This document shows, in pieces, positions 9,736 through 56,675 of a stretch of DNA of 64,000 nucleotides. How positions within the stretch are numbered: the first letter of the stretch is position 1; every line of letters starts with the position of its first letter. Position numbers and translations under genes: made by a program. This DNA is from a virus. A model generated the notes under the pieces. The model ran no database searches, had not been told where the DNA came from, and worked only from the letters and a program-made list of their open reading frames with translations. Where the stretch lies: positions 1 to 64,000 of the IMG/VR virus record IMGVR_UViG_3300045391_004184; one strand, written 5' to 3'.

Positions 9736-10179
9736 ATGCCAATTAGTAGTATTAAAGAATTAAGAGACCAAATTAAAGCGAAAAGACCAGATTGGGATGA
9801 TGCTAAAATCGATGAAGCAACAAAGGCTATTTATATGAAAAATCCTGGGATTGTAAAATCGGAATTTAGTTTTAGTGATCCTGAGCTTCAAAAACAATAT
9901 GAAGGTTTAAAACCTGGCCAATCAATGATGGGCACTTCAACGATGCCTGTTGCACAAAATGATCAAATTGACCGTTCCCCGTCCTCAATTCCTCCTTCCT
10001 CACCAATTTCTCCAACACCAATTCAACCGCAAATGCAAGATGATGCTAAAAAACAGGCAATTCAAAAAATAATGTATCCTTCTCTTTCAAAACAAATTAC
10101 TCCTGATTCAAAAAATAGTATTGATGAAGATAAAATTAATCCTTTTTTAAAGGGTTTAAATTCGGGTCGAGATCAATAA
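9736..10179 (+). CDS. hypothetical P/S-rich protein
   Basis: 147 aa. GGAG-type RBS (agaggagaaatATG). Pro/Ser-rich centre. Confidence 0.6.
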   Translation: MPISSIKELRDQIKAKRPDWDDAKIDEATKAIYMKNPGIVKSEFSFSDPELQKQYEGLKPGQSMMGTSTMPVAQNDQIDRSPSSIPPSSPISPTPIQPQMQDDAKKQAIQKIMYPSLSKQITPDSKNSIDEDKINPFLKGLNSGRDQ

Positions 10180-11857: not shown

Positions 11858-11872
11858 CTCAACAACTATATA
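11858..11872 (+). promoter_or_regulatory. conserved intergenic motif copy 3 (CTCAACAACTATATA), putative phage promoter
   Basis: Core AACAACTATA at 11861..11870. Heads a leader of about 170 nt before the capsid operon. Confidence 0.45.
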
Positions 11873-12496: not shown

Positions 12497-12512
12497 AAAA
12501 GGAGAATAAAAA

Positions 12513-13760
12513 ATGGCAACCTCAAATACATTTGGTACTCCTGATAACTCAGTCGGTACTTTAAACGGTTTCTTTAAAGAGACCTACGCATCTAAATTAG
12601 AAGAATTAATTCCAGATGGCGTGAAATTAATGAACAAAATTAAATTTATGTCCAAAGACAAACAACCTGGTAACTTATATCACCAGCCAGTTATCTTAGG
12701 ACTCGAGCATGGTGTTACCTTTGCTGCTAGCGATGAAGATGCATTTAATCTTTTAGCTCCTGTAGCTGGTCAAATCCGTGATGCTCAAGTTCGTGGTAAT
12801 CCTGTTGTTCTAAGATCAGTACTTGGTTACGCTGCCGCTAGCCGCGCTGCTCTTGGTGGACAAGCCGCTTTCATGGATGCAACCAAATTCTTAGTTGCAA
12901 ACATGCTTAGATCTATGGCTAAAAAACTTGAGATCGAAATGATCTATGGTCAAGTTGGTTACGGAACAATCAGTTCCGCAGCTTCCGCTCCTACCTATAC
13001 CATCACCACTGCAGAGTGGGCTCCTGGTATCTGGGCTGGCGCTGAAGGTATGCCAATTGAAATCAGAGATTCAAACGGAGTTCTTCGTGGTGGAGCAACA
13101 GTTCAATCTGTTGATATGTCACTTAGAACCATTACATTAAATGCAATTATTCCAGGTGTTTCATCTACTGATGTTATCTGGCATAAAGGTGCTTATGGTA
13201 ATGAATTCCCTGGAATCCATAAGATTCTTTCAATTAGTTCTGGTACATTGTTTAATATTGATGTTGGTACTTATAATCTTTTCCGTGGAAATAGTTATTC
13301 CGCTTCTTCAGGCGCTTTAAGCTTCACTAAGTTAAATCTTGCTGTAGCTCGTGCTGTTGAAAAAGGTTTAGATGGGAAAGTTCTTGCTCTTGTTAATCCT
13401 CGTGGATGGGCAAATCTTCTTTCCGACCAAGCGGCTCTACGCAAATATGATCAATCATATAAGCGCGATGTTGCTGAAAACGGAATGGAATCAATTAGAT
13501 TTTACTCTCAAAATGGTGAGATCGAAATTGAACCCTCTATTTATGTTAAGGAAGGTTATGCTTACATAATCTCTCTTGATGAGTGGATGAGAGTTGGATC
13601 AACAGATATGACCTTTAAGCGTCCTGGTCAAGGCGAAGAATTTTTCCGCGACCTTGAAAACGCCGCTGGTTATGAATTACGTCTATATAGCGATCAAGCC
13701 ATATTCTGCATGGCCCCAGGTCGTAACGTACTCGTTAATAACATCGTTAACCAACAATAG
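12513..13760 (+). CDS. major capsid protein
   Basis: 415 aa. AAGGAG RBS. Codon usage of a highly expressed gene. Follows the scaffold-like gene and is followed by a strong intrinsic terminator. Confidence 0.8.
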   Translation: MATSNTFGTPDNSVGTLNGFFKETYASKLEELIPDGVKLMNKIKFMSKDKQPGNLYHQPVILGLEHGVTFAASDEDAFNLLAPVAGQIRDAQVRGNPVVLRSVLGYAAASRAALGGQAAFMDATKFLVANMLRSMAKKLEIEMIYGQVGYGTISSAASAPTYTITTAEWAPGIWAGAEGMPIEIRDSNGVLRGGATVQSVDMSLRTITLNAIIPGVSSTDVIWHKGAYGNEFPGIHKILSISSGTLFNIDVGTYNLFRGNSYSASSGALSFTKLNLAVARAVEKGLDGKVLALVNPRGWANLLSDQAALRKYDQSYKRDVAENGMESIRFYSQNGEIEIEPSIYVKEGYAYIISLDEWMRVGSTDMTFKRPGQGEEFFRDLENAAGYELRLYSDQAIFCMAPGRNVLVNNIVNQQ

Positions 13761-13775
13761 TTTAAATAACTATAT
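13761..13775 (+). promoter_or_regulatory. conserved intergenic motif copy 4, variant (TTTAAATAACTATAT)
   Basis: C to T variant of the core. Lies between the capsid stop codon and the terminator stem, so a promoter role is doubtful here. Confidence 0.3.
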
Positions 13776-13808
13776 GAAAGGACTGGAGAAATCTGGTCCT
13801 TTCTTTTT
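13776..13808 (+). terminator. rho-independent terminator after the major capsid gene
   Basis: GAAAGGACTGGA-GAAA-TCTGGTCCTTTC: 12-bp stem including two G-T pairs, GAAA tetraloop, then TTTTT. Confidence 0.8.
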
Positions 13809-13865
13809 ATATAATTCATGCAAAAAACTACTAAAGTTTTCTAAGATAATACCGATAAGAATAAT

Positions 13866-15383
13866 ATGAGAAAAACTTGTGCTAATTGTAATAATGAATA
13901 TAATTTAGATCATTTTAATAAACACAGTGGTACTGTAGATAAATTAAGAACATACTGTAGGGATTGCGGTGCTAAAAAGAAGAAACTAAAAAGAGAAATG
14001 AATCCAAAATCTTTTTCCGTTTCCGTCGAAAAAAAAGAATGCCGAACTTGTAAAATAACAAAACCTTCAAATAGATTTACAAAAGATCGTCATAATCCTG
14101 ATGGACTTTGCACACAATGCAAGGATTGTCGTTCAAATAATACCAAAAAATACTATTTAATTAAAAAAGAAGCTATTAAACAAAATACCAGACAATATTA
14201 TCAAAAAAATAAAGATACCATACGTATTAAACGTAGAGTATATAGAAAAAATAGAGAAAAAACTGATATATTCTATAAATTAAAAAGAAGACTTAGAAAT
14301 AGACTTTATTATGCTCTTAAAAAAACAAGTTGGAAAAAAGACACACATTTTTCTCAATATATTGGTTGTTCTTTGGAGGAACTTAAAAAACATATAGAGA
14401 CCCAATTTAAATCGGGTATGAATTGGGATAATCACGGTCTTGTTTGGGATTTAGATCATTATATTCCTCTTAGCAGCGCGAAAACTGAAAAACAGATATA
14501 TGATCTTTCACATTATACAAATTTACGTCCAGAATTTAAAGAATATAATAGAAATGTTAAAAGAGATAAACTCCCTTCTAATATCTGCTGGCAAAAACTT
14601 CAAAGAGACAGACTTTTACAAGAGGATATAAAAAATGGCTGTCCTACAGACGTTAAAGCTTCTGAATTTGTTTTAGCGTATGAAAAGATAACAGAAGAAC
14701 ATAGAAAATTCATCGAACGCTATGAATGGCTAGGTACTTGTGGTTTTGGGGTGAGATATGTGTTTACAGCGCGTTTTAATGGCCTTTTAGGGGGCGTTGT
14801 AATGGTCGCAGAACCAAATGGCTATCAATTTGATAAGAAATTAGAAGCTCTTATTCAAAGAGGCGCTTGTGCAAGTTGGACCCCTAAAAATTTAGGTTCT
14901 CGTCTTGTAATGTTCGCTTGTCGATGGATGAAAGATAATACGAGTAAAAGAATATTTGTTGCTTATAGTGATCCTGAAGCTGGAGAAATAGGAACCATTT
15001 ATCAGGCTTGTAATTTTGATTATTTAGGACAAACTTTTGGCGCTGATTGTTATTATGAATTATCGGATGGAAATTTTGTCACACAAAGATATTTTACAAG
15101 AACCTCTTCTATGAAAAAATGGGCAAAAGCTTTAAATATTGAATGGCAAAAAGAATGGTCAAAAGAAAATGGCTTTCAAAATAGAAATAATATCCCAGAA
15201 CATATTAAACGACAATTAGATGAATATGCTAGAAAACAATATGAGCATCTTCCTAAAGTTAAAAAGACTCCTAAAGGTAAATATGTTCTTCTTTTAACTA
15301 ATAAACGTGAAAAGATTGAAAAAACCTGGAAACCCCTTCCTTATCCCAAAAGAATTATAGAAACCTCTATAACGGCAGCTTAA
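13866..15383 (+). CDS. HNH-type endonuclease-like domain fused to a Mom-like (GNAT-fold) domain
   Basis: N-terminal CxxC zinc-ribbon repeats and WDLDHYIPLS...NLRP...NRNVKRDK (HNH). C-terminal FVAYSDPEAGEIGTIYQACNFDYLGQ resembles the signature of Mom-family proteins, recalled from memory. Confidence 0.6.
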   Translation: MRKTCANCNNEYNLDHFNKHSGTVDKLRTYCRDCGAKKKKLKREMNPKSFSVSVEKKECRTCKITKPSNRFTKDRHNPDGLCTQCKDCRSNNTKKYYLIKKEAIKQNTRQYYQKNKDTIRIKRRVYRKNREKTDIFYKLKRRLRNRLYYALKKTSWKKDTHFSQYIGCSLEELKKHIETQFKSGMNWDNHGLVWDLDHYIPLSSAKTEKQIYDLSHYTNLRPEFKEYNRNVKRDKLPSNICWQKLQRDRLLQEDIKNGCPTDVKASEFVLAYEKITEEHRKFIERYEWLGTCGFGVRYVFTARFNGLLGGVVMVAEPNGYQFDKKLEALIQRGACASWTPKNLGSRLVMFACRWMKDNTSKRIFVAYSDPEAGEIGTIYQACNFDYLGQTFGADCYYELSDGNFVTQRYFTRTSSMKKWAKALNIEWQKEWSKENGFQNRNNIPEHIKRQLDEYARKQYEHLPKVKKTPKGKYVLLLTNKREKIEKTWKPLPYPKRIIETSITAA

Positions 15384-15397
15384 AATATTCCTATCAC

Positions 15398-15412
15398 TTT
15401 AACAACTATAAT
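15398..15412 (+). promoter_or_regulatory. conserved intergenic motif copy 5 (TTTAACAACTATAAT), putative phage promoter
   Basis: 15 nt after the stop of 13866..15383 and 38 nt upstream of the ATG at 15449. Confidence 0.45.
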
Positions 15413-15448
15413 ATATTAACTTATTATCGTTTTTAAAGGATTTCCAGC

Positions 15449-15925
15449 ATGAAAATTAACATTCAGGGCACAATAATTGATTTCCCTGAAAGCGGCGACC
15501 CTGCCAATTGGGCACCTCCTATAGATCAATTTGCTGCATCCGTTGAGGAAGCGTTTAACGCGGTTTTAGGACCATTTGACGTTTCTCCTCAAGTCTTTGT
15601 AATGACCTCAAATGCTAATGCCAATGTTGATCTTCCAAATTTAGCTTTTCCCACTTCTAGCGTTCGTGCCGCTTTTATCGAATATAGTGTTTTTAGAACA
15701 ACTAATACAGATACTGGATACGAGACAGGTACTATTAATGTCGTTTATAATCCAAATAATCCAATTGGTACAAAATGGGAAATTACAAGAGAATATCAGG
15801 GCACTGATGAAATGACCTTTAATATTACAGATGTTGGACAAGTTCAATTTACAAGTTCGGCACTTTCCGGTTCCAATCATGTTGGAAAAATAACATATAC
15901 AGCAAAAGCTTTACAGAATAGTTAA
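15449..15925 (+). CDS. hypothetical virion protein
   Basis: 158 aa. First gene after motif copy 5. Precedes the fibre genes. Confidence 0.6.
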   Translation: MKINIQGTIIDFPESGDPANWAPPIDQFAASVEEAFNAVLGPFDVSPQVFVMTSNANANVDLPNLAFPTSSVRAAFIEYSVFRTTNTDTGYETGTINVVYNPNNPIGTKWEITREYQGTDEMTFNITDVGQVQFTSSALSGSNHVGKITYTAKALQNS

Positions 15926-15939
15926 TTAGGAGTTTTTAG

Positions 15940-17598
15940 GTGCTTAATATCAAAAAATTAATAAATGGTTTAAGATTGATGCCTAAAAGCTCTTCTACCA
16001 TTGATTCTGCTGGTGAAATGGAAGTTTTATCAACAGATGGTCGTTTGAGAATTAATGATGGTTCTACAACTTCTAGGGTTGTTACAGAAACTCAAGAATC
16101 TCAAGGCGCTAATAGATTACAAAATAAAGATTTAGATGATGAATCAACCGCAGTAGTTAATACAATTGATACAACTAAAAAAATTCAATTTAATGCTTCT
16201 GGAACAACAGGAACCTCAACAACCCTTTTATCTTCTCAAACTGCAAATAGAGTCCTAACTCTTCCTGATACTACAGATACATTAGCAACCGTTGGTTCTT
16301 CTCAGGTATTAACAAATAAAAAACTTGATGATTCAACAGTCTATTTTGTAGATACTGGTGATAATACAAAAGAATTTCATTTTGATGCTGCCGGAACAGC
16401 GGGCACAAAAACAACTCTTGCTGCGTCTCAAACTTCAAATAGGACTATAAATCTTCCCGATGCTTCTACAACTCTTGTGGGAACAGATACAGTAGATTCT
16501 TTAACAAATAAAGTTCTTATTGATGTTGGTAATTTAGAATTAACTGGTAATACAATTTCTTCAACAGATACAGATGGAAATATTAATTTATCTCCAAATG
16601 GAACTGGAGATGTTGTAATTGATCAAATATCTGTTTCAGAATCTTCAATTAATGATGTTAGTGGAATTACTGGAATAGTTGGTGGATCATTAACAGTCCA
16701 ATCGGCTTCGGGACAAAATTTAAGTCTATTAGCAATTGATGCTGGAAGTGCAATAATTAGTGGCACTGATGTCCAAGTTAAAGGTACAGTTTTCACCTCT
16801 AATACAATTACAGGTGCTTCTGGTAGTACCTTTACGGTTCAAGCCGATTCTTCACAAAATTTAGCTCTCAAAGGTGGATCAGGTGGAAATGTCACCGTTC
16901 CTTCCAATCCTCTAGTTTTATCACAAAATTTAGAAACATTAAGAGCCGATGATTCTTCAACAACAGGTTCTCAAGCAACATTAAGTGCATTTACTACTGG
17001 ATTTGTTAAAGTTACAAATAATTCTCTTTCTTCACTTTCCGCAATACCCGCAGGTGCTGACGGTCAACAATTAATTCTTTCGAATGAAACTGGAAATAGT
17101 TTTATTATTAATAATGAAGATACTGGTGTTACAGCGGCTAATAGAATTTTAACAGGAACTGGTGCCCTTATTACTGTTAATAATAATTCATCTATTAGTT
17201 TGATTTATGATACTGGTAATTCAAGATGGAAAGTTTTTGGTGGAGCGGGCGGTGGAGCAGTTCCAACAACTTTTGGCTCTCGTTTATCTCCTAAAAATAT
17301 CACAGCCGGAACTGGTTTAGCGGCTAGTGCCAGTAATATGAGCACAACCGCAACTGAGCAATTGATTTTTGTTCAAGGAAACGGTGGACCAGTAACTATT
17401 ACCGCATCTCCAGCGATTCAGGCGGGAACTCAAGTTGGTCAAAAAATGATTCTAATCGGAAGATCCGATTCTAATACTGTAACAATTAATAATTCTACAG
17501 CACAAGTTGAACTTAATGGAAATGTAACATTAGGGTGGGGAGATTCCATTTCATTAATTTACGATGGAACGTGTTGGACAGAATTGGGGCGTTCATAA
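15940..17598 (+). CDS. tail fibre-like protein
   Basis: GTG start behind an AGGAG RBS. Two units of about 50 aa (F.A.GT.GT.TTL..SQT.NR...LPD...TL......LTNK), then a G/S/T-rich beta-type sequence. Confidence 0.7.
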   Translation: MLNIKKLINGLRLMPKSSSTIDSAGEMEVLSTDGRLRINDGSTTSRVVTETQESQGANRLQNKDLDDESTAVVNTIDTTKKIQFNASGTTGTSTTLLSSQTANRVLTLPDTTDTLATVGSSQVLTNKKLDDSTVYFVDTGDNTKEFHFDAAGTAGTKTTLAASQTSNRTINLPDASTTLVGTDTVDSLTNKVLIDVGNLELTGNTISSTDTDGNINLSPNGTGDVVIDQISVSESSINDVSGITGIVGGSLTVQSASGQNLSLLAIDAGSAIISGTDVQVKGTVFTSNTITGASGSTFTVQADSSQNLALKGGSGGNVTVPSNPLVLSQNLETLRADDSSTTGSQATLSAFTTGFVKVTNNSLSSLSAIPAGADGQQLILSNETGNSFIINNEDTGVTAANRILTGTGALITVNNNSSISLIYDTGNSRWKVFGGAGGGAVPTTFGSRLSPKNITAGTGLAASASNMSTTATEQLIFVQGNGGPVTITASPAIQAGTQVGQKMILIGRSDSNTVTINNSTAQVELNGNVTLGWGDSISLIYDGTCWTELGRS

Positions 17599-22223: not shown

Positions 22224-22979
22224 TTGATATCTTTAAAACAATGTTCTAAATGTTTGGAAAATAAACAATTAGATCAATTTCATAAACAAAAAAGTACTAA
22301 AGATGGATTTCAATGTTATTGTAAATCTTGTAAAACTTTAATACTTAAGGAATATAAAATTAAAAGATTATCTAAAAAAATAGATATTCTTAAAAAGGAA
22401 TGTTTCGATTGTTATAAAATTTTAGATATTAAAATGTTTAATTTTAATCCTTTGGGGGCAGATGGACATGAAAAAAGATGCAAAAGCTGCCAATCTTTCT
22501 ATTCAAAACAATATAGAAAAAATAATATTGAAAAATTAAAAGAAAAAAAGAAAAAATATTATTTAAAAAATAAAGAATATATTAAGAAAAAAGTTAAAAA
22601 CTATGTTAAAGAAAATCGAGATAAAGTTAGAAAAATTTCTTTAAAAATATATCATAGAAGATATAATACTGATTTGCATTTTAATTTAATTACAAAATTA
22701 AGAAGTAGATTAAATTCTGCTTTAAAAAATAAAAAATGGAAAAAAAATTCCAAATTTTCTCAATATATAGGATGTTCTCTAGAGGATTTAAAACTTCATT
22801 TAGAAAAACAATTTCAACCAGGAATGTCCTGGAAAAATCGCAAGGAATGGCATATAGACCATATAATTCCATTAAGTTCTGCTAAAAACGAACAAGAATT
22901 ATATAAATTGTGTCATTATACAAATTTACAACCTTTATGGGCAATAGATAATATTAAAAAAGGTAATAAGGTGGCATAA
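22224..22979 (+). CDS. HNH-type endonuclease (free-standing, homing-like)
   Basis: TTG start behind AAGGAG. CxxC repeats. WHIDHIIPLS...NLQPLWAIDNIKKGNK. Paralog of the N-terminal half of 13866..15383. Confidence 0.75.
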   Translation: MISLKQCSKCLENKQLDQFHKQKSTKDGFQCYCKSCKTLILKEYKIKRLSKKIDILKKECFDCYKILDIKMFNFNPLGADGHEKRCKSCQSFYSKQYRKNNIEKLKEKKKKYYLKNKEYIKKKVKNYVKENRDKVRKISLKIYHRRYNTDLHFNLITKLRSRLNSALKNKKWKKNSKFSQYIGCSLEDLKLHLEKQFQPGMSWKNRKEWHIDHIIPLSSAKNEQELYKLCHYTNLQPLWAIDNIKKGNKVA

Positions 22980-40325: not shown

Positions 40326-40550
40326 TTATATAAGCTCCAATATATAAATATTCTTATTTTTAGAATACCATTTAAATTGCAAAAGACCATTTTGTTCATC
40401 AAATCTAAAAGGATCTGTTCTTAATTTAAATGCGTGTTGTATGGCAGCTTGTTGTAAATCTTGATTAAATTTATTTTGAGCTTGTGATAGCGATGAACCA
40501 ATTGTTTGTCCAATTCCCAATCCTCCAAATATATTACCCAAAAAATTCAT
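40326..40550 (-). CDS. small protein, C-terminal ILEL family
   Basis: Ends NIYILELI. Last gene before the 238-nt gap. Confidence 0.5.
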   Translation of the reverse strand: MNFLGNIFGGLGIGQTIGSSLSQAQNKFNQDLQQAAIQHAFKLRTDPFRFDEQNGLLQFKWYSKNKNIYILELI

Positions 40551-40951
40551 TTCTTTTTCTTCCTTCTCTTAATAGCTTTTTGACCATTAGAAACTCTTTG
40601 AACATTCTCAATCGAAGTCTTTATAGAATGGCATCCTTCGCATAAAACCTGAAATTCGTGGCTTTTAACAAATAATCTATTTATAAAATCATCCCAATTT
40701 GTCCAGCCATTTTTTACATCAATTACAGGGTTTTTATGATCAAGTTCAATATCCTTATTTCCAAAGGATTGTTTGCATTCTTCACAAGTATAAAATCCTC
40801 TTTCTATTCTTTGACGAGTTTTTGCTATATTTTTAAAGGGCCATCGAAAAGTGGATCTTCTTAATGTTGCAATTACAAATGACTTTAAATACTTTTGAAA
40901 AGTATTCTCATCTTTTTCTATTGCATTGTAATCGTTCTTTTTATTAGCCAT
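40547..40951 (-). CDS. HNH endonuclease
   Basis: CEECKQ...ELDHKNPV...N...LCEGCHSIKT. Confidence 0.75.
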   Translation of the reverse strand: MANKKNDYNAIEKDENTFQKYLKSFVIATLRRSTFRWPFKNIAKTRQRIERGFYTCEECKQSFGNKDIELDHKNPVIDVKNGWTNWDDFINRLFVKSHEFQVLCEGCHSIKTSIENVQRVSNGQKAIKRRKKKK

Positions 40952-41548: not shown

Positions 41549-41823
41549 TTTAAAAACTCTTCCATTTTACTTTTAAAATCCTCATTATGTTTCTTATGTG
41601 CAATAGATTCGATTTGATAAATTTGATGTTCTGTCCATTCTATAAATTCATTAAAATCACGTTTAATAAACCTAGGAGAAACTAATATTTGAAAATATTC
41701 GGTTGTTTTTTTATTATAAAAACTTAGGCGAATACTATCATAAGACATATCAAGATTAGCGCTATATAAACTAAATCCATAATAATCTCTTCCCCTAAAA
41801 TAGGTTTCTATTTGCGATGTCAT
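41545..41823 (-). CDS. small protein, C-terminal HxxxFxxKMxxLL family
   Basis: Ends KHNEDFKSKMEEFLK. Confidence 0.65.
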   Translation of the reverse strand: MTSQIETYFRGRDYYGFSLYSANLDMSYDSIRLSFYNKKTTEYFQILVSPRFIKRDFNEFIEWTEHQIYQIESIAHKKHNEDFKSKMEEFLK

Positions 41824-42146
41824 TCTTTTTTCTTTTCAGTTTCTTTAATCCATCTATCATCAAATTGAGGCTTATTTTTATACATCCAAATAGCAAACAT
41901 AAGGTTGCAAGCTGCATGTGCTAAATGGTTTATATTGGATTCAGGGTCCAAATCTTCTCCCTGATTAAACTTATAAGTGTGTCTTAAAGATGCAGAAATA
42001 AGTCTTGAAAGCTCTATTCCTTGTGCCCAATTTCCTCTGTCATATTTCTTTTTTCCAAAGTCTAATACTTTCGCAATTTCAAAAAGGGCTTCCATGGGCA
42101 AGAGATCAAGAGGCTCTTTCCCAGAATCAAATTTTTTTCCGGCCAT
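41820..42146 (-). CDS. MazG-like all-alpha NTP pyrophosphohydrolase (DUF5664 / dATP-dGTP diphosphohydrolase N-domain-like)
   Basis: FDSGKEPLDLLP...FGKKKYDRGNWAQG...LRH...GEDLDPESNINHLAHAACNLMF, pattern recalled for that family. Confidence 0.5.
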   Translation of the reverse strand: MAGKKFDSGKEPLDLLPMEALFEIAKVLDFGKKKYDRGNWAQGIELSRLISASLRHTYKFNQGEDLDPESNINHLAHAACNLMFAIWMYKNKPQFDDRWIKETEKKKE

Positions 42147-46573: not shown

Positions 46574-46770
46574 TTTTTCAACCTAACCATATTCATTTCA
46601 ATTCTCATATCATCACTAAGAAATAAATTTGGTGTTTTTGTAATTTCACTTTCAATTGCAAGTAATTTGTGTAAATACACTTTCTTTTGACTAAAATAGT
46701 AACATTTAATTTTATGTTCTTTTTTTATTAACTTTTCTGGACGATCATTAAATTTATCCCAATTTTTCAT
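46570..46770 (-). CDS. hypothetical small protein
   Basis: 66 aa, ATGA-coupled. Confidence 0.5.
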   Translation of the reverse strand: MKNWDKFNDRPEKLIKKEHKIKCYYFSQKKVYLHKLLAIESEITKTPNLFLSDDMRIEMNMVRLKK

Positions 46771-47438
46771 TTCAAATCCTCTAATAAATGTTGCGACCGT
46801 TTTAACTTATAATTAATAAATGTTTCCTTTGGGATCACATTTTCAAATATTAATGCTGTTTTATATAATTTTTCCAAATAACGGTTTTTATCATAATTAC
46901 CGTCCCATTTATCCACAAGATTCAATGTCCCATCAGATTTATAATAAAAGAATGCTTTATCACCTTCATTATATTCCGAACCTTGTATTGCATCAAAAAC
47001 CTTTTGTTCATTTAATCTTTCGGGGTTTAAGACTTTCTGTGTCAAAGTTTTCTTCGTGCGCCATCTATTTATATCGGTAATATTTAAAATTTCTTTAGCA
47101 TAATTTTGATAAATTTCTAAAAAATCTGTCTTCTCTTCTATAATTGATTTAATGAGCTTTTCAATAAATTCTCTTAAAGCCGGTTCTCGTTTTCCGTCCC
47201 TTATAGAAGATCCTTTAGTTTTAATCTTTTGACCATCATACAATATATAGTTTTTAGCCTTTAATATAATAACTTTAGAAAATACCCCATCCGGTTCCCA
47301 TCTGATTTTTGAAGGGAATTGATTATTAAGTTCTTCTAGAAGTTTTTGTTGTTCTTCTGAAGAAAATGATTCGCCATTATTTTTTGCGACCATTATAGAA
47401 TCTGTATCACAATTTACAAGTTGGAAATTATAAGTCAT
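46767..47438 (-). CDS. family B DNA polymerase, C-terminal fragment (motif C + thumb)
   Basis: LVNCDTDSIMV (motif C, DTDS) 10 residues from the start. LKAKNYILY (KKRY-like). Confidence 0.8.
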   Translation of the reverse strand: MTYNFQLVNCDTDSIMVAKNNGESFSSEEQQKLLEELNNQFPSKIRWEPDGVFSKVIILKAKNYILYDGQKIKTKGSSIRDGKREPALREFIEKLIKSIIEEKTDFLEIYQNYAKEILNITDINRWRTKKTLTQKVLNPERLNEQKVFDAIQGSEYNEGDKAFFYYKSDGTLNLVDKWDGNYDKNRYLEKLYKTALIFENVIPKETFINYKLKRSQHLLEDLK

Positions 47439-47593: not shown

Positions 47594-47805
47594 TTCAAAA
47601 AATCTTCCATCTTCTCGTTAAAGTTATTATCATGATCTTCTTTTTCAGAAGCTAAATAATCTTTAGGAATCATCCATCCTTTAATAATAACATAATTTGT
47701 CATTTCTTGATCAACTTTATAATATTCATTTTTATTAAATTCATCTTGTTCAAAATTATTTTTATAATGTCCATTAAAGATTTTAATTCTGTATCTCAAA
47801 TTCAC
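47590..47805 (-). CDS. small protein, C-terminal HxxxFxxKMxxLL family, inside the polymerase split
   Basis: Ends DHDNNFNEKMEDFLK. Overlaps the 3' end of the polymerase N-fragment by 23 nt. Confidence 0.6.
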   Translation of the reverse strand: MNLRYRIKIFNGHYKNNFEQDEFNKNEYYKVDQEMTNYVIIKGWMIPKDYLASEKEDHDNNFNEKMEDFLK

Positions 47806-49276
47806 TCCCTGTCGCCCATTTTATCGCTTGCTTTAAAATCTCTCTTCCATGTTTTGTAATTTCAGAAGCGCCAGATAAATAATTAAAATTTAAACCATTT
47901 GTTCCCATAAAACCATAGGCAGAGTTAATTCCAATTTTTTGGGACTGTTCAATATCTGTATAAAATCTTTCACCCGTTTCTTTCGCAAGTTTTTTATTCT
48001 TCAATCTTTCTTCCGTTAATATTTCAATGATTTGTAGAAAGTTTTTATTTGGATCTTTATGTTTGGGATAAATTTCGTATTGTCTGATAATTGAAGGATA
48101 AAGAGAACTAACATCCCATTTTATACAATTTGAATAAATTCCAGGTTTTCCATAAGAAATTGCGCCCTGAAACTCTTCTTTAATTTCATCAGCTTTTGGA
48201 ATAGAATGTCCATCTTGTAAATAACTTCTAATCATTAAAGAATTAATTTGCGATCCTGTTGCGGATTCTATTACACGCTGAAAACTCATAGGAACGATTT
48301 GAGTCCAATAAAATAATGAGGGGGCCATAAGATCAAATAATTTTAAAGCATCATTACTATCATCTTTACAATAATCCTTTATAAGCTTCCATTCTTTAGG
48401 ATCTTTATATTTATAACGGATTTGAGAAGCATCATAAAACGTTCTATTAGCGTCTATAAGCCCTTCTTGTTCAATGATCTTCTTAAGACCATATGATTCA
48501 TACTTTTTACTTGCTATATCGTATTTAATGGCTAAAAACATGGTGTCCACAAGTTCTCGGCCATAAATATATGCTTTCCTATAATGAATATCTTGAGTTT
48601 GATCTTTTCTAAATTTAGATTCATAAGGGTTAAATTTAATAGGACTTTTATCCATTCCTAATTCTAATTGAATACCTTCTTTATCTGCGATATATTGGAG
48701 GTAGGGAAGATCGTAATTATAAATATTGTGCCCGCAAATAATAGCTGGGTTTTTTTCTCGCACCCATTGGCACCAGGCTTCTAACATTTCTCCTTGAGAC
48801 CAATATTCATCATATGCAAATAATTTTATTTCTACTTTATCTTTATTTCTATATGTATTAGAAATTAAAAGTACTTTTGCGCTCTCGTCCATTTTTAAAC
48901 TTGTGGACTCAATATCAAATGTCAATATGGGAAGATCTTTTGGAGAAAGACCTTTATAATATGTTAGACCTTTATTTATTAGAGAATTTTCTTTTAAATC
49001 ACCGATTGTAAAAGTATCTTTTTCTTTAAGTCTTTTCTTATTGTAATAATATTCACTAATGCTTTTATATTGTTTACCATATTTAAAATGGAGGTTTCCT
49101 TTTAATTTTACCCAATCTTCTTTTTCTTTTCTGGAAGACAATATCCAATAACTATTATCAATTATAGTGGATTTAATTTCATTATTTTCTAAATGAAAGA
49201 TTTCTAATTGTCCATCTAATGGTTCTATGGACACGATTTTTTGAAAATCATTTCTTCCATATATAAGTTTATTCAT
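47783..49276 (-). CDS. family B DNA polymerase, N-terminal fragment (3'-5' exonuclease + motifs A and B)
   Basis: FDIESTS (ExoI), GHNIYNYDLPYL (ExoII), YCKDDSNDALKL (ExoIII), WDVSSLYPSII (motif A), KIGINSAYG (motif B), ITKHGR. Confidence 0.85.
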   Translation of the reverse strand: MNKLIYGRNDFQKIVSIEPLDGQLEIFHLENNEIKSTIIDNSYWILSSRKEKEDWVKLKGNLHFKYGKQYKSISEYYYNKKRLKEKDTFTIGDLKENSLINKGLTYYKGLSPKDLPILTFDIESTSLKMDESAKVLLISNTYRNKDKVEIKLFAYDEYWSQGEMLEAWCQWVREKNPAIICGHNIYNYDLPYLQYIADKEGIQLELGMDKSPIKFNPYESKFRKDQTQDIHYRKAYIYGRELVDTMFLAIKYDIASKKYESYGLKKIIEQEGLIDANRTFYDASQIRYKYKDPKEWKLIKDYCKDDSNDALKLFDLMAPSLFYWTQIVPMSFQRVIESATGSQINSLMIRSYLQDGHSIPKADEIKEEFQGAISYGKPGIYSNCIKWDVSSLYPSIIRQYEIYPKHKDPNKNFLQIIEILTEERLKNKKLAKETGERFYTDIEQSQKIGINSAYGFMGTNGLNFNYLSGASEITKHGREILKQAIKWATGSEFEIQN

Positions 49277-56033: not shown

Positions 56034-56352
56034 CTTTTAATAAATCTTCCATTTTAGAAGCAAATTGTTCATCATGCTTTAATTTTGCAAGTTTTTCGGG
56101 CTTTAAATTTTCAGCTTGAAAACCTTCTGTTCCAATCATTTCCCCATCTAGAAAATATGAGATTTGATTATTTTTTGTTTCAACAACTGCTGGTCCTGAA
56201 GGATTATGGAAGTACTTCATAATATGAAATTCTTTAATAAGATCTATCCCTTTTGTTGTTTGATAATTGGGACAAACTTTTACGAATTCTTCCTTAACAG
56301 TTGTTGTAATATGAGGTTGATCATTCCATTTAAAAGTAATAGTTCCGGTCAT
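56026..56352 (-). CDS. small protein, C-terminal HxxxFxxKMxxLL family
   Basis: Ends KHDEQFASKMEDLLKDE. Confidence 0.65.
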   Translation of the reverse strand: MTGTITFKWNDQPHITTTVKEEFVKVCPNYQTTKGIDLIKEFHIMKYFHNPSGPAVVETKNNQISYFLDGEMIGTEGFQAENLKPEKLAKLKHDEQFASKMEDLLKDE

Positions 56353-56675
56353 TTCTCCTCCAGTTTATTAACATTAAAATTTTTATAACAATTATAATTG
56401 TATTTATATTTAAATTCTTTAGAGCCTTCTTCGGCTATTCTAATAGCCATTGCCGCAACTTGTATTGCTTCTGCGAATACATCTTCGGCTTTTTGTTTTC
56501 CTCGGTGCTGATCTATTAAAGCTTGTGATAATTCTCCAACTTCTTCAACCAATGCTGCTAATAAATGTTCATTGGAGGGAAATTTTGTTCTAGCGAAATT
56601 TAATTCCGATTCTACACAATAAATGGTTCTTTGTAATAATGGTTTATCGAATTCCTTATTTAATAACTTTTTCAT
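56349..56675 (-). CDS. MazG-like nucleotide pyrophosphohydrolase
   Basis: LVEEVGELSQAL ... EDVFAEAIQVAAMAIRIAE (E-x2-E / helical MazG pattern). 108 aa. Confidence 0.55.
   Translation of the reverse strand: MKKLLNKEFDKPLLQRTIYCVESELNFARTKFPSNEHLLAALVEEVGELSQALIDQHRGKQKAEDVFAEAIQVAAMAIRIAEEGSKEFKYKYNYNCYKNFNVNKLEEK

Follow-up and report, generated by a model that had tools for sequence, protein, structure and literature searches.

The window analysed here, a stretch of 64,000 nucleotides (nt) covering positions 1 to 64,000 of the IMG/VR virus record IMGVR_UViG_3300045391_004184, carries downstream of its major capsid protein gene an intact open reading frame (ORF). According to the ORF list and translation it starts with ATG and encodes a protein of 505 amino acids (aa), which joins an N-terminal zinc-ribbon and predicted HNH nuclease module to a C-terminal domain of the Mom family of GNAT-fold enzymes (Table 1). 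A protein with 100% identity was found in a large protein collection as a JGI metagenome entry encoded on an 87.6-kb contig, together with dozens of full-length homologues sharing 42-72% identity. What appears to be new, judged by the literature searched, is the HNH version of a nuclease-Mom fusion, the class itself having been described before. A preliminary description of the window, made from the letters alone, had proposed this two-domain reading and had placed the gene as an insertion right after the capsid terminator. Both proposals agree with our results: the C-terminal half matched PF25680, phrog_1384 and the fold of phage Mu Mom (8bv8), and the position is marked by a major head gene, a 12-bp hairpin with T-run at 13776-13803 and empty sites in relatives.

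Table 1. Positions in the window of the fusion gene, its domains and key codons, the borders of the slot that holds it, and the paralogous gene
Feature	Coordinates	Strand	Basis or remark
HNH-Mom fusion gene, complete	13866..15383	+	505 aa plus stop; ORF list, translation, full-length homologues
Zinc ribbon 1 (C5, C8, C31, C34) and first basic helix	13866..14000	+	Cys invariant in 56 fused and 60 free-standing homologues
Zinc ribbon 2 (C59, C62, C85, C88), lineage-specific	14028..14135	+	The window protein has it, as do about half of the free-standing HNH proteins
Lys/Arg-rich helical repeat arm, aa 86-153, K-x-Y-Y-x-x-N-K repeats	14121..14324	+	AlphaFold secondary structure
Predicted HNH (beta-beta-alpha-metal) nuclease core, aa 160-235	14343..14570	+	Motif, PHROG profiles, model
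Predicted catalytic codons of the HNH core	D197-H198 14454-14459; N219 14520-14522; N228 14547-14549; K232 14559-14561	+	Conservation
Mom-family GNAT domain, aa 241-496, from C-W-Q-K motif to P-Y-P-K-R tail	14586..15353	+	Pfam PF25680, fold match
Mom-domain key codons	R332 14859-14861; S345 14898-14900; D369 14970-14972; Y379 15000-15002	+	Alignment with Mu Mom
Enlarged GNAT insertion, about aa 400-465, containing W419	15063..15260	+	MAFFT alignment with Mu Mom
Major capsid protein gene, upstream anchor of the slot	12513..13760	+	phrog_14242 'major head protein', E 3.4e-6
Intrinsic-terminator-like hairpin and T-run, 3' of the capsid gene	13776..13809	+	Scan: 12-bp stem with 5 G-C pairs, then TTTTTATATA
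TTAACAACTAT motif 5' of the downstream gene, downstream slot boundary	15399..15409	+	Exact copy
Conserved 158-aa gene, downstream anchor of the slot	15449..15925	+	tblastn in relatives
Free-standing HNH paralogue, 251 aa, mobile gene of homing-endonuclease type	22224..22979	+	40% identity to the N-terminal half of the fusion

Conservation of the two halves of the fusion protein

By BLASTP, residues 3-222 of the fusion protein were 40% identical to the product of a free-standing ORF of the window (E = 2e-40), and the motifs that the preliminary description had quoted for the paralogy of the two genes were all present, namely CxxC pairs, W-D-L-D-H-Y-I-P-L-S-S-A-K, H-Y-T-N-L-R-P and three helical repeats of about 14 aa (K/R-Y-Y-x-x-N-K) at aa 93-135. 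The homology of this half is thus established. Its zinc-ribbon reading stood for the window protein, which has both ribbons; one detail had to be corrected, as in the fused family the second ribbon is not conserved and is missing from most members. The region of the first ribbon showed a weak fold resemblance to the tandem zinc finger of Stc1 (PDB 2luy, E 0.027). The basic arm was modelled by AlphaFold as three helices spanning residues 86-114, 116-133 and 135-153, with predicted local distance difference test (pLDDT) scores above 90.

In the region assigned to the HNH core, D197, H198, N219 and P222 were conserved in 100%, and N228 and K232 in 98%, of 56 fused homologues, and the D-H...N...N/H motif was conserved at 98-100% in fused and free-standing homologues alike. 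In the model, D197-H198 end the strand 194-198, N219 precedes the strand 220-224, and N228 lies within the helix 225-233. PHROG profiles matching this region were phrog_1035 'endonuclease VII' (E 2.5e-16), phrog_2340 (E 3.8e-9) and phrog_2255 'HNH' (E 1e-5); NCBIfam matched neither this protein nor its paralogue. When the model of the N-terminal half (pLDDT 92.4) was searched against the PDB, no match at E 0.001 or better was obtained. The best match, a weak one, was Hpy99I, a beta-beta-alpha-metal restriction enzyme (E 0.02), and stretches of about 40 residues matched the nuclease-like domain of autotaxin with a root-mean-square deviation of 1.7 Å.

Five positions of the core, H195, C215, Q221, W224 and A225, were 92-100% conserved in 59 free-standing relatives and 21-54% conserved in the fused family, the window protein having D195 and S215. 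With the catalytic core kept and these positions relaxed, the fused HNH domain evolves under constraints other than those of the free-standing proteins. Two of the five are part of a putative zinc site, C168-H176-H195-C215, of the free-standing proteins. A neighbour-joining tree of the 85-aa HNH cores was too poorly resolved to settle whether the fused HNH domains have a single origin.

For the C-terminal half, the preliminary description had proposed a profile search against Mom and GNAT models, and this search placed Pfam PF25680 'Mom' above its curated cut-off (41.6 versus 27.1 bits, E 1.5e-10, aa 339-432). The PHROG profile phrog_1384, 'Mom-like DNA modification protein', matched aa 280-499 (E 1.3e-18). 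An AlphaFold model of the fusion protein, built on 56 homologues (pLDDT 88.4), was compared with the PDB by Foldseek, and Mu Mom (8bv8_A/B) ranked 1-2 with E 6e-9 and template modelling (TM) scores of 0.60-0.64 normalised to Mom; other GNATs followed at E about 4e-4 or worse. Among BFVD models, the Mom of Salmonella phage FSL SP-031 was matched with a TM score of 0.78, and entries annotated as 'homing endonuclease' also matched the Mom-like half. The homology of this domain to Mom is established by these matches.

In the reaction of Mu Mom, Gly-tRNA(Gly) donates its glycine to the N6 position of adenine in duplex DNA, after which the product rearranges on the base (Silva et al. 2026, PMC13219725). 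In that enzyme R111, S124, D149 and R151 are essential, with R151A inactive; H58, Y59, Y159 and W181 are important, with H58 and Y59 mutants strongly reduced; and an insertion resembling a helix-turn-helix (HTH), proposed to contact DNA, is indispensable (PMC13219725). The acyl-CoA-binding residues that the preliminary description had named for checking are therefore an outdated test, since the donor of Mu Mom is Gly-tRNA(Gly) and not acyl-CoA (PMC13219725).

Residues were mapped to Mu Mom with a MAFFT alignment of 16 sequences including Mu Mom, and a phmmer alignment to 8bv8 agreed with it. The equivalents of R111, S124, D149 and Y159, which are R332, S345, D369 and Y379, were conserved in 16/16 sequences, and that of W181, which is W419, in 15/16. 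In the 56 fused homologues S345, D369 and Y379 were invariant and R332 was conserved in at least 90%. Mutation of the Mu residues equivalent to R332, S345, D369 and Y379 abolishes or strongly reduces activity (PMC13219725; PMC7261163). The motif surrounding the catalytic serine was near-invariant, and the enlarged insertion was modelled with helices at 408-422 and 445-459. Identity was about 63% in the Mom half, 52% in the HNH core and 27% in the basic arm. Because it is the best-conserved part of the protein, the Mom half appears to be the function under selection, and we read it as an active enzyme of the Mom type, with a donor or product perhaps unlike those of Mu. Residues C241, H279, C352 and C382 suggest a further putative site in this domain.

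Recurrence of the fusion and the slot behind the capsid gene

The architecture of the 120 best matches was assigned by a classification based on hidden Markov models. The same HNH as in the window (type 'A') was present in 62 of them and a different, classical HNH (type 'B'; V-D-H-I-V-P-L...N-L-Q, usually with an extra HTH) in 33, leaving 25 with a short zinc ribbon only, an HTH or another N-terminus. On the tree of the Mom domains these types formed three large, mostly coherent clades with a minimum of 11 changes, and forms without an HNH were nested inside the A clade. At two loci (L004 and L006) the HNH part was a separate gene that abutted or overlapped a shorter Mom-like gene. The fusion was conserved in more than 60 metagenomic protein clusters, which establishes its recurrence and stability. 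A frameshift or an assembly artefact joining two genes was considered and rejected, as more than 60 independent homologues were fused alike. Among INPHARED phage records none showed the fused arrangement, and tblastn matched the two halves only separately. A type-B gene was also found about 100 nt past an unrelated capsid gene (phrog_752) on contigs of 148-159 kb.

When 1.84 billion cluster representatives were searched with the Mom-like domain by itself, 769 proteins matched at E 1e-3 or better; 110 of these reached E 1e-30 or better and stand for at least 110 clusters defined at 50% identity. An N-terminal extension of at least 150 aa was present in 60 of the 113 closest representatives, and one of at least 400 aa in 18. 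A Pfam scan of the large unclassified members found Mom in 39/39, and their partner domains were DUF7487 (11), LAGLIDADG (2, plus one LAGLIDADG_3), HNH, HNH_5, a Vsr-type restriction endonuclease (REase), a TnsA-like nuclease, CapR, NUMOD3, many HTH types and a treble-clef zinc finger. Judged from these domain matches, the partner set is essentially a homing-endonuclease toolkit. Close relatives of the Mom-like domain all carried a DNA-binding or nuclease module, whether HNH (A, B or C), Vsr-like, LAGLIDADG, HTH or zinc ribbon, and PD-(D/E)xK versions were seen in P0091, L063 and L043. The preliminary description had not recognised this architecture; the class is in fact known from Iyer et al. 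2021 (PMC7824862) and from Hef-like endonucleases. In the literature searched, we found neither an HNH-Mom fusion nor an association of Mom with homing endonucleases beyond these reports.

Stand-alone proteins of the same Mom-like subfamily, 389-414 aa long, were observed in metagenome-assembled genomes (MAGs) of Bdellovibrionota chromosomes (L080 3965-5185, L091 4133-5302, L082 3962-5206), that of L080 with a C-terminal HTH_17, and many Bacteriovoracaceae and Bdellovibrio MAGs carry such a gene. Its neighbours in L080 and L091 encode an FtsK/SpoIIIE-type ATPase, two tyrosine recombinases and a protein with weak, sub-threshold Replic_Relax/HxlR matches, a setting that looks like an integrative mobile element.

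In order to compare the site of insertion, 64 related viral contigs were retrieved via the capsid protein (60-85% identical), and the slot was defined as the region from the capsid gene to the conserved 158-aa gene. By tblastn, the latter started 106 to 3500 nt past the capsid gene in relatives, depending on slot content. The slot was empty at 14 of the 64 loci, with 106-178 nt between the two genes. Elsewhere it held a free-standing HNH only (e.g. L013, L023, L032, L037 and L068), a GIY-YIG homing endonuclease (L010, L020, L028, L051 and L057), an HNH-Mom in fused or split form, or a Hef-like protein of 456-479 aa (L043, L035, L044, L054 and L063). In this last protein, DUF7487 and a Vsr-like nuclease are combined with a C-terminal domain that shows motifs of the Mom/GNAT type, and the profile matched is phrog_3339 'homing endonuclease' (E 5e-95). 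A canonical Mom (116 bits) followed by a C-terminal GIY-YIG-like sequence with a weak NUMOD3 match occupied the slot of L048 and, by tblastn, also those of L036 and L066, and unrelated small genes were present at other loci. A further slot state was a pair of genes, one for a product of about 280 aa whose N-terminus is hydrophobic and resembles a signal peptide, the other for a small hydrophobic product of about 85 aa. Even among phages whose capsid protein was at least 75% identical to that of the window, four different slot states were found. The 64 loci thus display presence/absence polymorphism at one locus beside a conserved gene.

A hairpin followed by a T-run was present 3' of the capsid gene in 21/21 related loci inspected. 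TTAACAACTAT occurred in five exact copies in the window (9495, 10758, 15399, 20980 and 29575), all on the + strand, all intergenic and all just 5' of structural genes within the structural module, and in a one-mismatch copy at 11859. Allowing up to one mismatch, 10 matches were counted against 4.05 expected. The motif also stood 5' of the downstream gene in several relatives, among them those whose slot is empty, and it is probably a phage-specific late promoter. Slot genes of some relatives have a sigma-70-like promoter of their own, TTGAC(T/A)-17 nt-TATAGT (L002, about 9950-10000; L020, about 2270-2310); the copy in the window has no match to the -35 element, and the sequence just upstream, TATATAATTCATGCAAAAAAC, is common to L002. 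Taken together, the terminator, the slot states and TTAACAACTAT point to the gap at 13761-15448 as a hypervariable and transcriptionally insulated landing pad for homing endonuclease genes, in which the cassette lies. This reading agrees with the clustering of such genes beside capsid and terminase genes (PMC10448857).

The free-standing paralogue belongs to a family of more than 7400 homologues, mostly free-standing and of 180-260 aa, and its GC content is 21.4% against 32% for the window. At the corresponding site of the closest relative, which is 72% identical (L002, 15655-17798), the paralogue is missing and a 178-aa and a 527-aa gene adjoin, so that we regard it as a separate mobile insertion. 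A third, unrelated small HNH protein of 134 aa is encoded in the replication module (40547-40951, - strand; Pfam HNH E 0.0018, below threshold). The fusion gene itself is not marked as recently foreign by GC or GC3 content. A megablast search of positions 12500-16000 against 50,697 phage records gave no match, so the phage is without a close cultured relative. In the window, no tRNA gene was found, the Rfam scan returned no family, PADLOC defence models gave no match, and no Com-like regulator was seen.

Two MazG-like genes had been taken in the preliminary description as a hint that the phage hypermodifies its DNA. Their link to the fusion enzyme, and with it hypermodification at the level of dNTPs, was rejected as unsupported, since momylation is post-replicative and acts on duplex DNA (PMC13219725); moreover, a family match was obtained for just one of the pair. 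That gene (41820-42146, - strand, 108 aa) matched PF18909 'dATP/dGTP diphosphohydrolase, N-terminal' at E 5e-33, the kind of MazG-like enzyme with which phages change their purine nucleotide pools; the second candidate (56349-56675, - strand) had no Pfam match. No PurZ-like gene was seen among the ORFs read, PurZ not having been searched for systematically. The family-B DNA polymerase is apparently split into 46767-47438 and 47783-49276 (- strand), about 340 nt apart, with the break just before the D-T-D-S motif, and Rfam detected no group I intron there at the gathering threshold.

Candidate functions of the fusion protein

We consider it moderately probable that the gene is a mobile accessory cassette, in which a Mom-type DNA-adenine modifier has been joined to a DNA-binding and nuclease module that derives from a homing endonuclease and keeps its catalytic core. 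By analogy with Mu Mom, the GNAT domain (aa 241-496) would take an aminoacyl group from a charged tRNA and pass it to N6 of adenines in double-stranded phage DNA, where the resulting bulky adduct would block restriction enzymes. The zinc ribbon or ribbons, the basic helical arm and the HNH core would supply DNA binding. Because its catalytic core is kept, the HNH domain probably also nicks or cuts DNA, and this activity would account for the spread of the cassette into the slot 3' of the capsid gene. Both enzymatic activities, the donor, the target base and the purpose of the nuclease are inferred from sequence, predicted structure and comparative genomics. The preliminary description had regarded the HNH part as a module recruited for delivery, and a DNA-binding or nuclease module does accompany Mom in every close relative. 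Delivery and nothing more does not fit, however, with a catalytic core that is invariant in 56 fused homologues, with a very large family whose free-standing members behave as mobile genes of the homing type, or with a slot that is a homing hot spot.

Several observations weigh against this cassette reading, and they concern both halves of the protein. On the side of the nuclease, Pfam HNH left the fusion protein unmatched and reached the paralogue at E 0.013, below threshold, so that it is the motif, the PHROG profiles and the weak fold match from which the HNH assignment is predicted; the relaxed core positions indicate that the fused nuclease may be weakened or repurposed. On the side of the Mom domain, the Pfam alignment spans only profile positions 80-172 of 202, the central 93. 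The equivalent of Mu R151, which is essential in Mu, is E371, and its column is variable (E/D/S/L/R/T/K/M/A), holding T even in the canonical Mom-like protein of L048. The equivalents of H58/Y59 are E287/W288, a mapping made by profile comparison via the intermediate L048 protein, as MAFFT was ambiguous in this N-terminal region; the change from Y59 to W288 is conservative and that from H58 to E287 is not. With R151 and H58/Y59 replaced, the enzyme may differ from Mu Mom in its donor or its chemistry. A sequence-specific DNA-binding module would also be an odd partner for an enzyme that marks a whole genome. Finally, the Mom-domain tree shows a fusion that looks mostly vertically inherited in its clade, which is atypical for active homing, although such clade-wise inheritance neither proves nor excludes that homing is ongoing.

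The cassette reading is weakest where it concerns what the nuclease does. Homing and mobility of the cassette would be in keeping with the hot spot, the empty alleles and the homing-type partner domains. An attack on unmodified DNA, as in restriction-modification, would match a catalytic core so strictly retained and fusions made independently with several nucleases. A role little beyond DNA binding would suit the relaxed positions and the number of relatives that have no nuclease. A rival to the cassette reading, which we regard as unlikely, is a single-chain enzyme with the logic of restriction-modification: Mom would mark the phage's own adenines, and HNH would break down host DNA or the DNA of co-infecting phages where it is unmodified. 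Such a scheme has been published for fusions of Mom to REase-fold nucleases in jumbo phages, the modification guarding self DNA and the nuclease attacking other DNA (Iyer et al. 2021, PMC7824862). It would agree with the strictly kept HNH core, and also with the finding that one Mom subfamily has been fused both to a Vsr-like nuclease and to two or more independent HNH types; the relaxed constraints in the fused HNH would fit a substrate specificity that changed after fusion. However, thousands of members of this HNH family lack a Mom partner, and one of them is encoded in this very window, so the family should not be generally dangerous to unmodified phage DNA, in line with what site-specific homing enzymes would do. 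Moreover, LAGLIDADG, GIY-YIG-like, NUMOD3 and CapR partners are hallmarks of homing endonucleases rather than of bulk degradation, and many members of the family lack a nuclease altogether, an HTH or a zinc ribbon being their only such module.

Less likely again is a pure homing endonuclease, whose Mom-like domain would be catalytically dead and serve DNA recognition, perhaps by flipping adenine, as may be the case in Hef-like enzymes. The slot is a hot spot of homing endonucleases with empty alleles, Hef-like enzymes are widespread (423 phage records, with up to 11 copies per genome), the Hef of phage U5 is reported to be a working homing endonuclease (PMC2988022; PMC3239194), and two functionally important positions of Mu Mom are not kept. 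What makes us doubt this explanation is the strong conservation of the Mom residues: DNA-binding domains of homing endonucleases usually evolve fast, but this half is the most conserved of the protein and retains R332, S345, D369, Y379, W419 and the near-invariant serine motif. The Mom subfamily also exists without a nuclease, both in the HTH or zinc-ribbon forms of phages and in the stand-alone Bdellovibrionota proteins with HTH_17. A related idea, which we hold to be slightly more doubtful still, is that of a self-immunising homing endonuclease, in effect a gene drive with epigenetic immunity. In this scheme the DNA-binding module would bring both activities to one site, the Mom domain would aminoacylate an adenine in the carrier's site so that the linked nuclease could not cut there, and unmodified alleles of co-infecting relatives would be cut and converted. 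The scheme would account for the variety of homing nucleases joined to one Mom-like subfamily, which are HNH of two or three types, LAGLIDADG, Vsr-like and a GIY-YIG-like region, as well as for the location of the cassettes beside capsid genes of unrelated families. Last in our ranking, and improbable, is a GNAT domain that acts on tRNA, on a nucleotide, on a protein such as capsid, or on DNA with an acyl-CoA donor, the HNH being an unrelated passenger. GNAT substrates are not predictable from fold (Silva et al. 2026, PMC13219725), the positions equivalent to Mu H58 and R151 differ, and the gene adjoins that of the capsid. Yet the nearest structure and profile are those of Mom and not of tRNA- or protein-acetylating GNATs, the DNA-contacting insertion with its conserved Trp is retained and enlarged, and the partners are all DNA-binding or DNA-cutting modules, pointing to DNA as the substrate.

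The gene is of interest in several respects. It was not until 2026 that the chemistry of Mu Mom was worked out. The gene belongs to a large Mom branch that is seen only in metagenomes and is nearly always joined to modules of the homing-endonuclease type; with its active site altered at two positions important in Mu, this branch may use another amino acid or give another adduct. An active enzyme would be a compact, one-gene tool for testing new DNA hypermodifications, and would offer a concrete system for asking why DNA-modifying domains travel with selfish nucleases. The answer bears on anti-restriction, on competition between phages and on the unexplained C-terminal domain of Hef-like endonucleases.

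Comparison with known systems

The nearest counterparts of the N-terminal half are the free-standing phage HNH proteins of phrog_1035, for example those of Flavobacterium phages vB_FspP_elemo and Acinetobacter phage YMC11/12/R2315, annotated as 'endonuclease VII / HNH endonuclease'. They share with the N-terminal 235 aa of the fusion protein the zinc ribbon or ribbons, the basic arm with Y-Y-x-x-N-K repeats and the core W-x-I-D-H-x-I-P-L...N-L-x-P...N...K. The free-standing proteins stop after the HNH helix, whereas the fused ones run on into the Mom domain, and H195, C215, Q221, W224 and A225 are near-invariant in the former and relaxed in the latter. Single-chain restriction-modification enzymes (Type IIG/IIL, e.g. 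MmeI) also combine a nuclease and a modifier of the same DNA in one chain. They methylate with S-adenosylmethionine, carry PD-(D/E)xK nucleases and serve cellular defence, so the likeness is a functional analogy that implies no homology.

The fusions of Iyer et al. 2021 (PMC7824862) likewise have a nuclease and Mom in one polypeptide. Their nuclease is of the REase (PD-(D/E)xK) fold and not an HNH, they occur in jumbo phages and not in a phage of about 87 kb, and their Mom belongs to another subfamily; the acyl-CoA donor assumed at the time has since been superseded for Mu Mom. Hef-like homing endonucleases of cultured phages (e.g. Acj9, the Campylobacter CP21/CP220 group and F-Lim of Dickeya LIMEstone) join a Vsr-like (EDxHD) nuclease to a C-terminal GNAT-like domain. 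They resemble the HNH-Mom proteins in combining a homing-type nuclease and a C-terminal domain with Mom/GNAT-like motifs in one polypeptide, and in being encoded by free-standing genes beside conserved structural genes, which in relatives of the window include the same post-capsid slot. The differences are that their nuclease is of the PD-(D/E)xK Vsr type and not an HNH, that they are multi-copy within a genome, and that their GNAT-like domain is far more divergent (Pfam Mom E 0.005; hhalign with the fused family gave no match in the region). Homing is reported to have been shown by experiment for the Hef of phage U5, whereas the HNH-Mom family is known here from sequence. The C-terminal domains of Hef-like proteins (L043 7515-8942; phage records H41-H80) show the motifs Y-H-I-L-G, L-S-R, G-G-x-S-K-L and W-x-D-L-R, and some depositors annotate these proteins as 'nuclease/acetyltransferase'.

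For the C-terminal half, the closest characterised protein is Mu Mom. The two domains have in common the GNAT fold, with 8bv8 as the best structural match, the equivalents of R111, S124, D149, Y159 and W181, an insertion at the place of the HTH-like insertion of Mu, and a P-Y-P-K tail. In both, a catalytic-serine loop (P-K-N-L-G-S in the window protein, P-R-N-S-E-S in Mu) stands in for the usual CoA-pyrophosphate motif. Identity is about 18%, the insertion is of about 60 aa in the window protein against about 35 aa in Mu, and the window domain has an extra conserved N-terminal helix starting at C-W-Q-K. Mu Mom is a stand-alone protein of 241 aa, whereas the domain described here is fused to a nuclease and DNA-binding module of 240 aa and, unlike Mu Mom, is encoded 3' of a capsid gene in an uncultured phage of about 87 kb.

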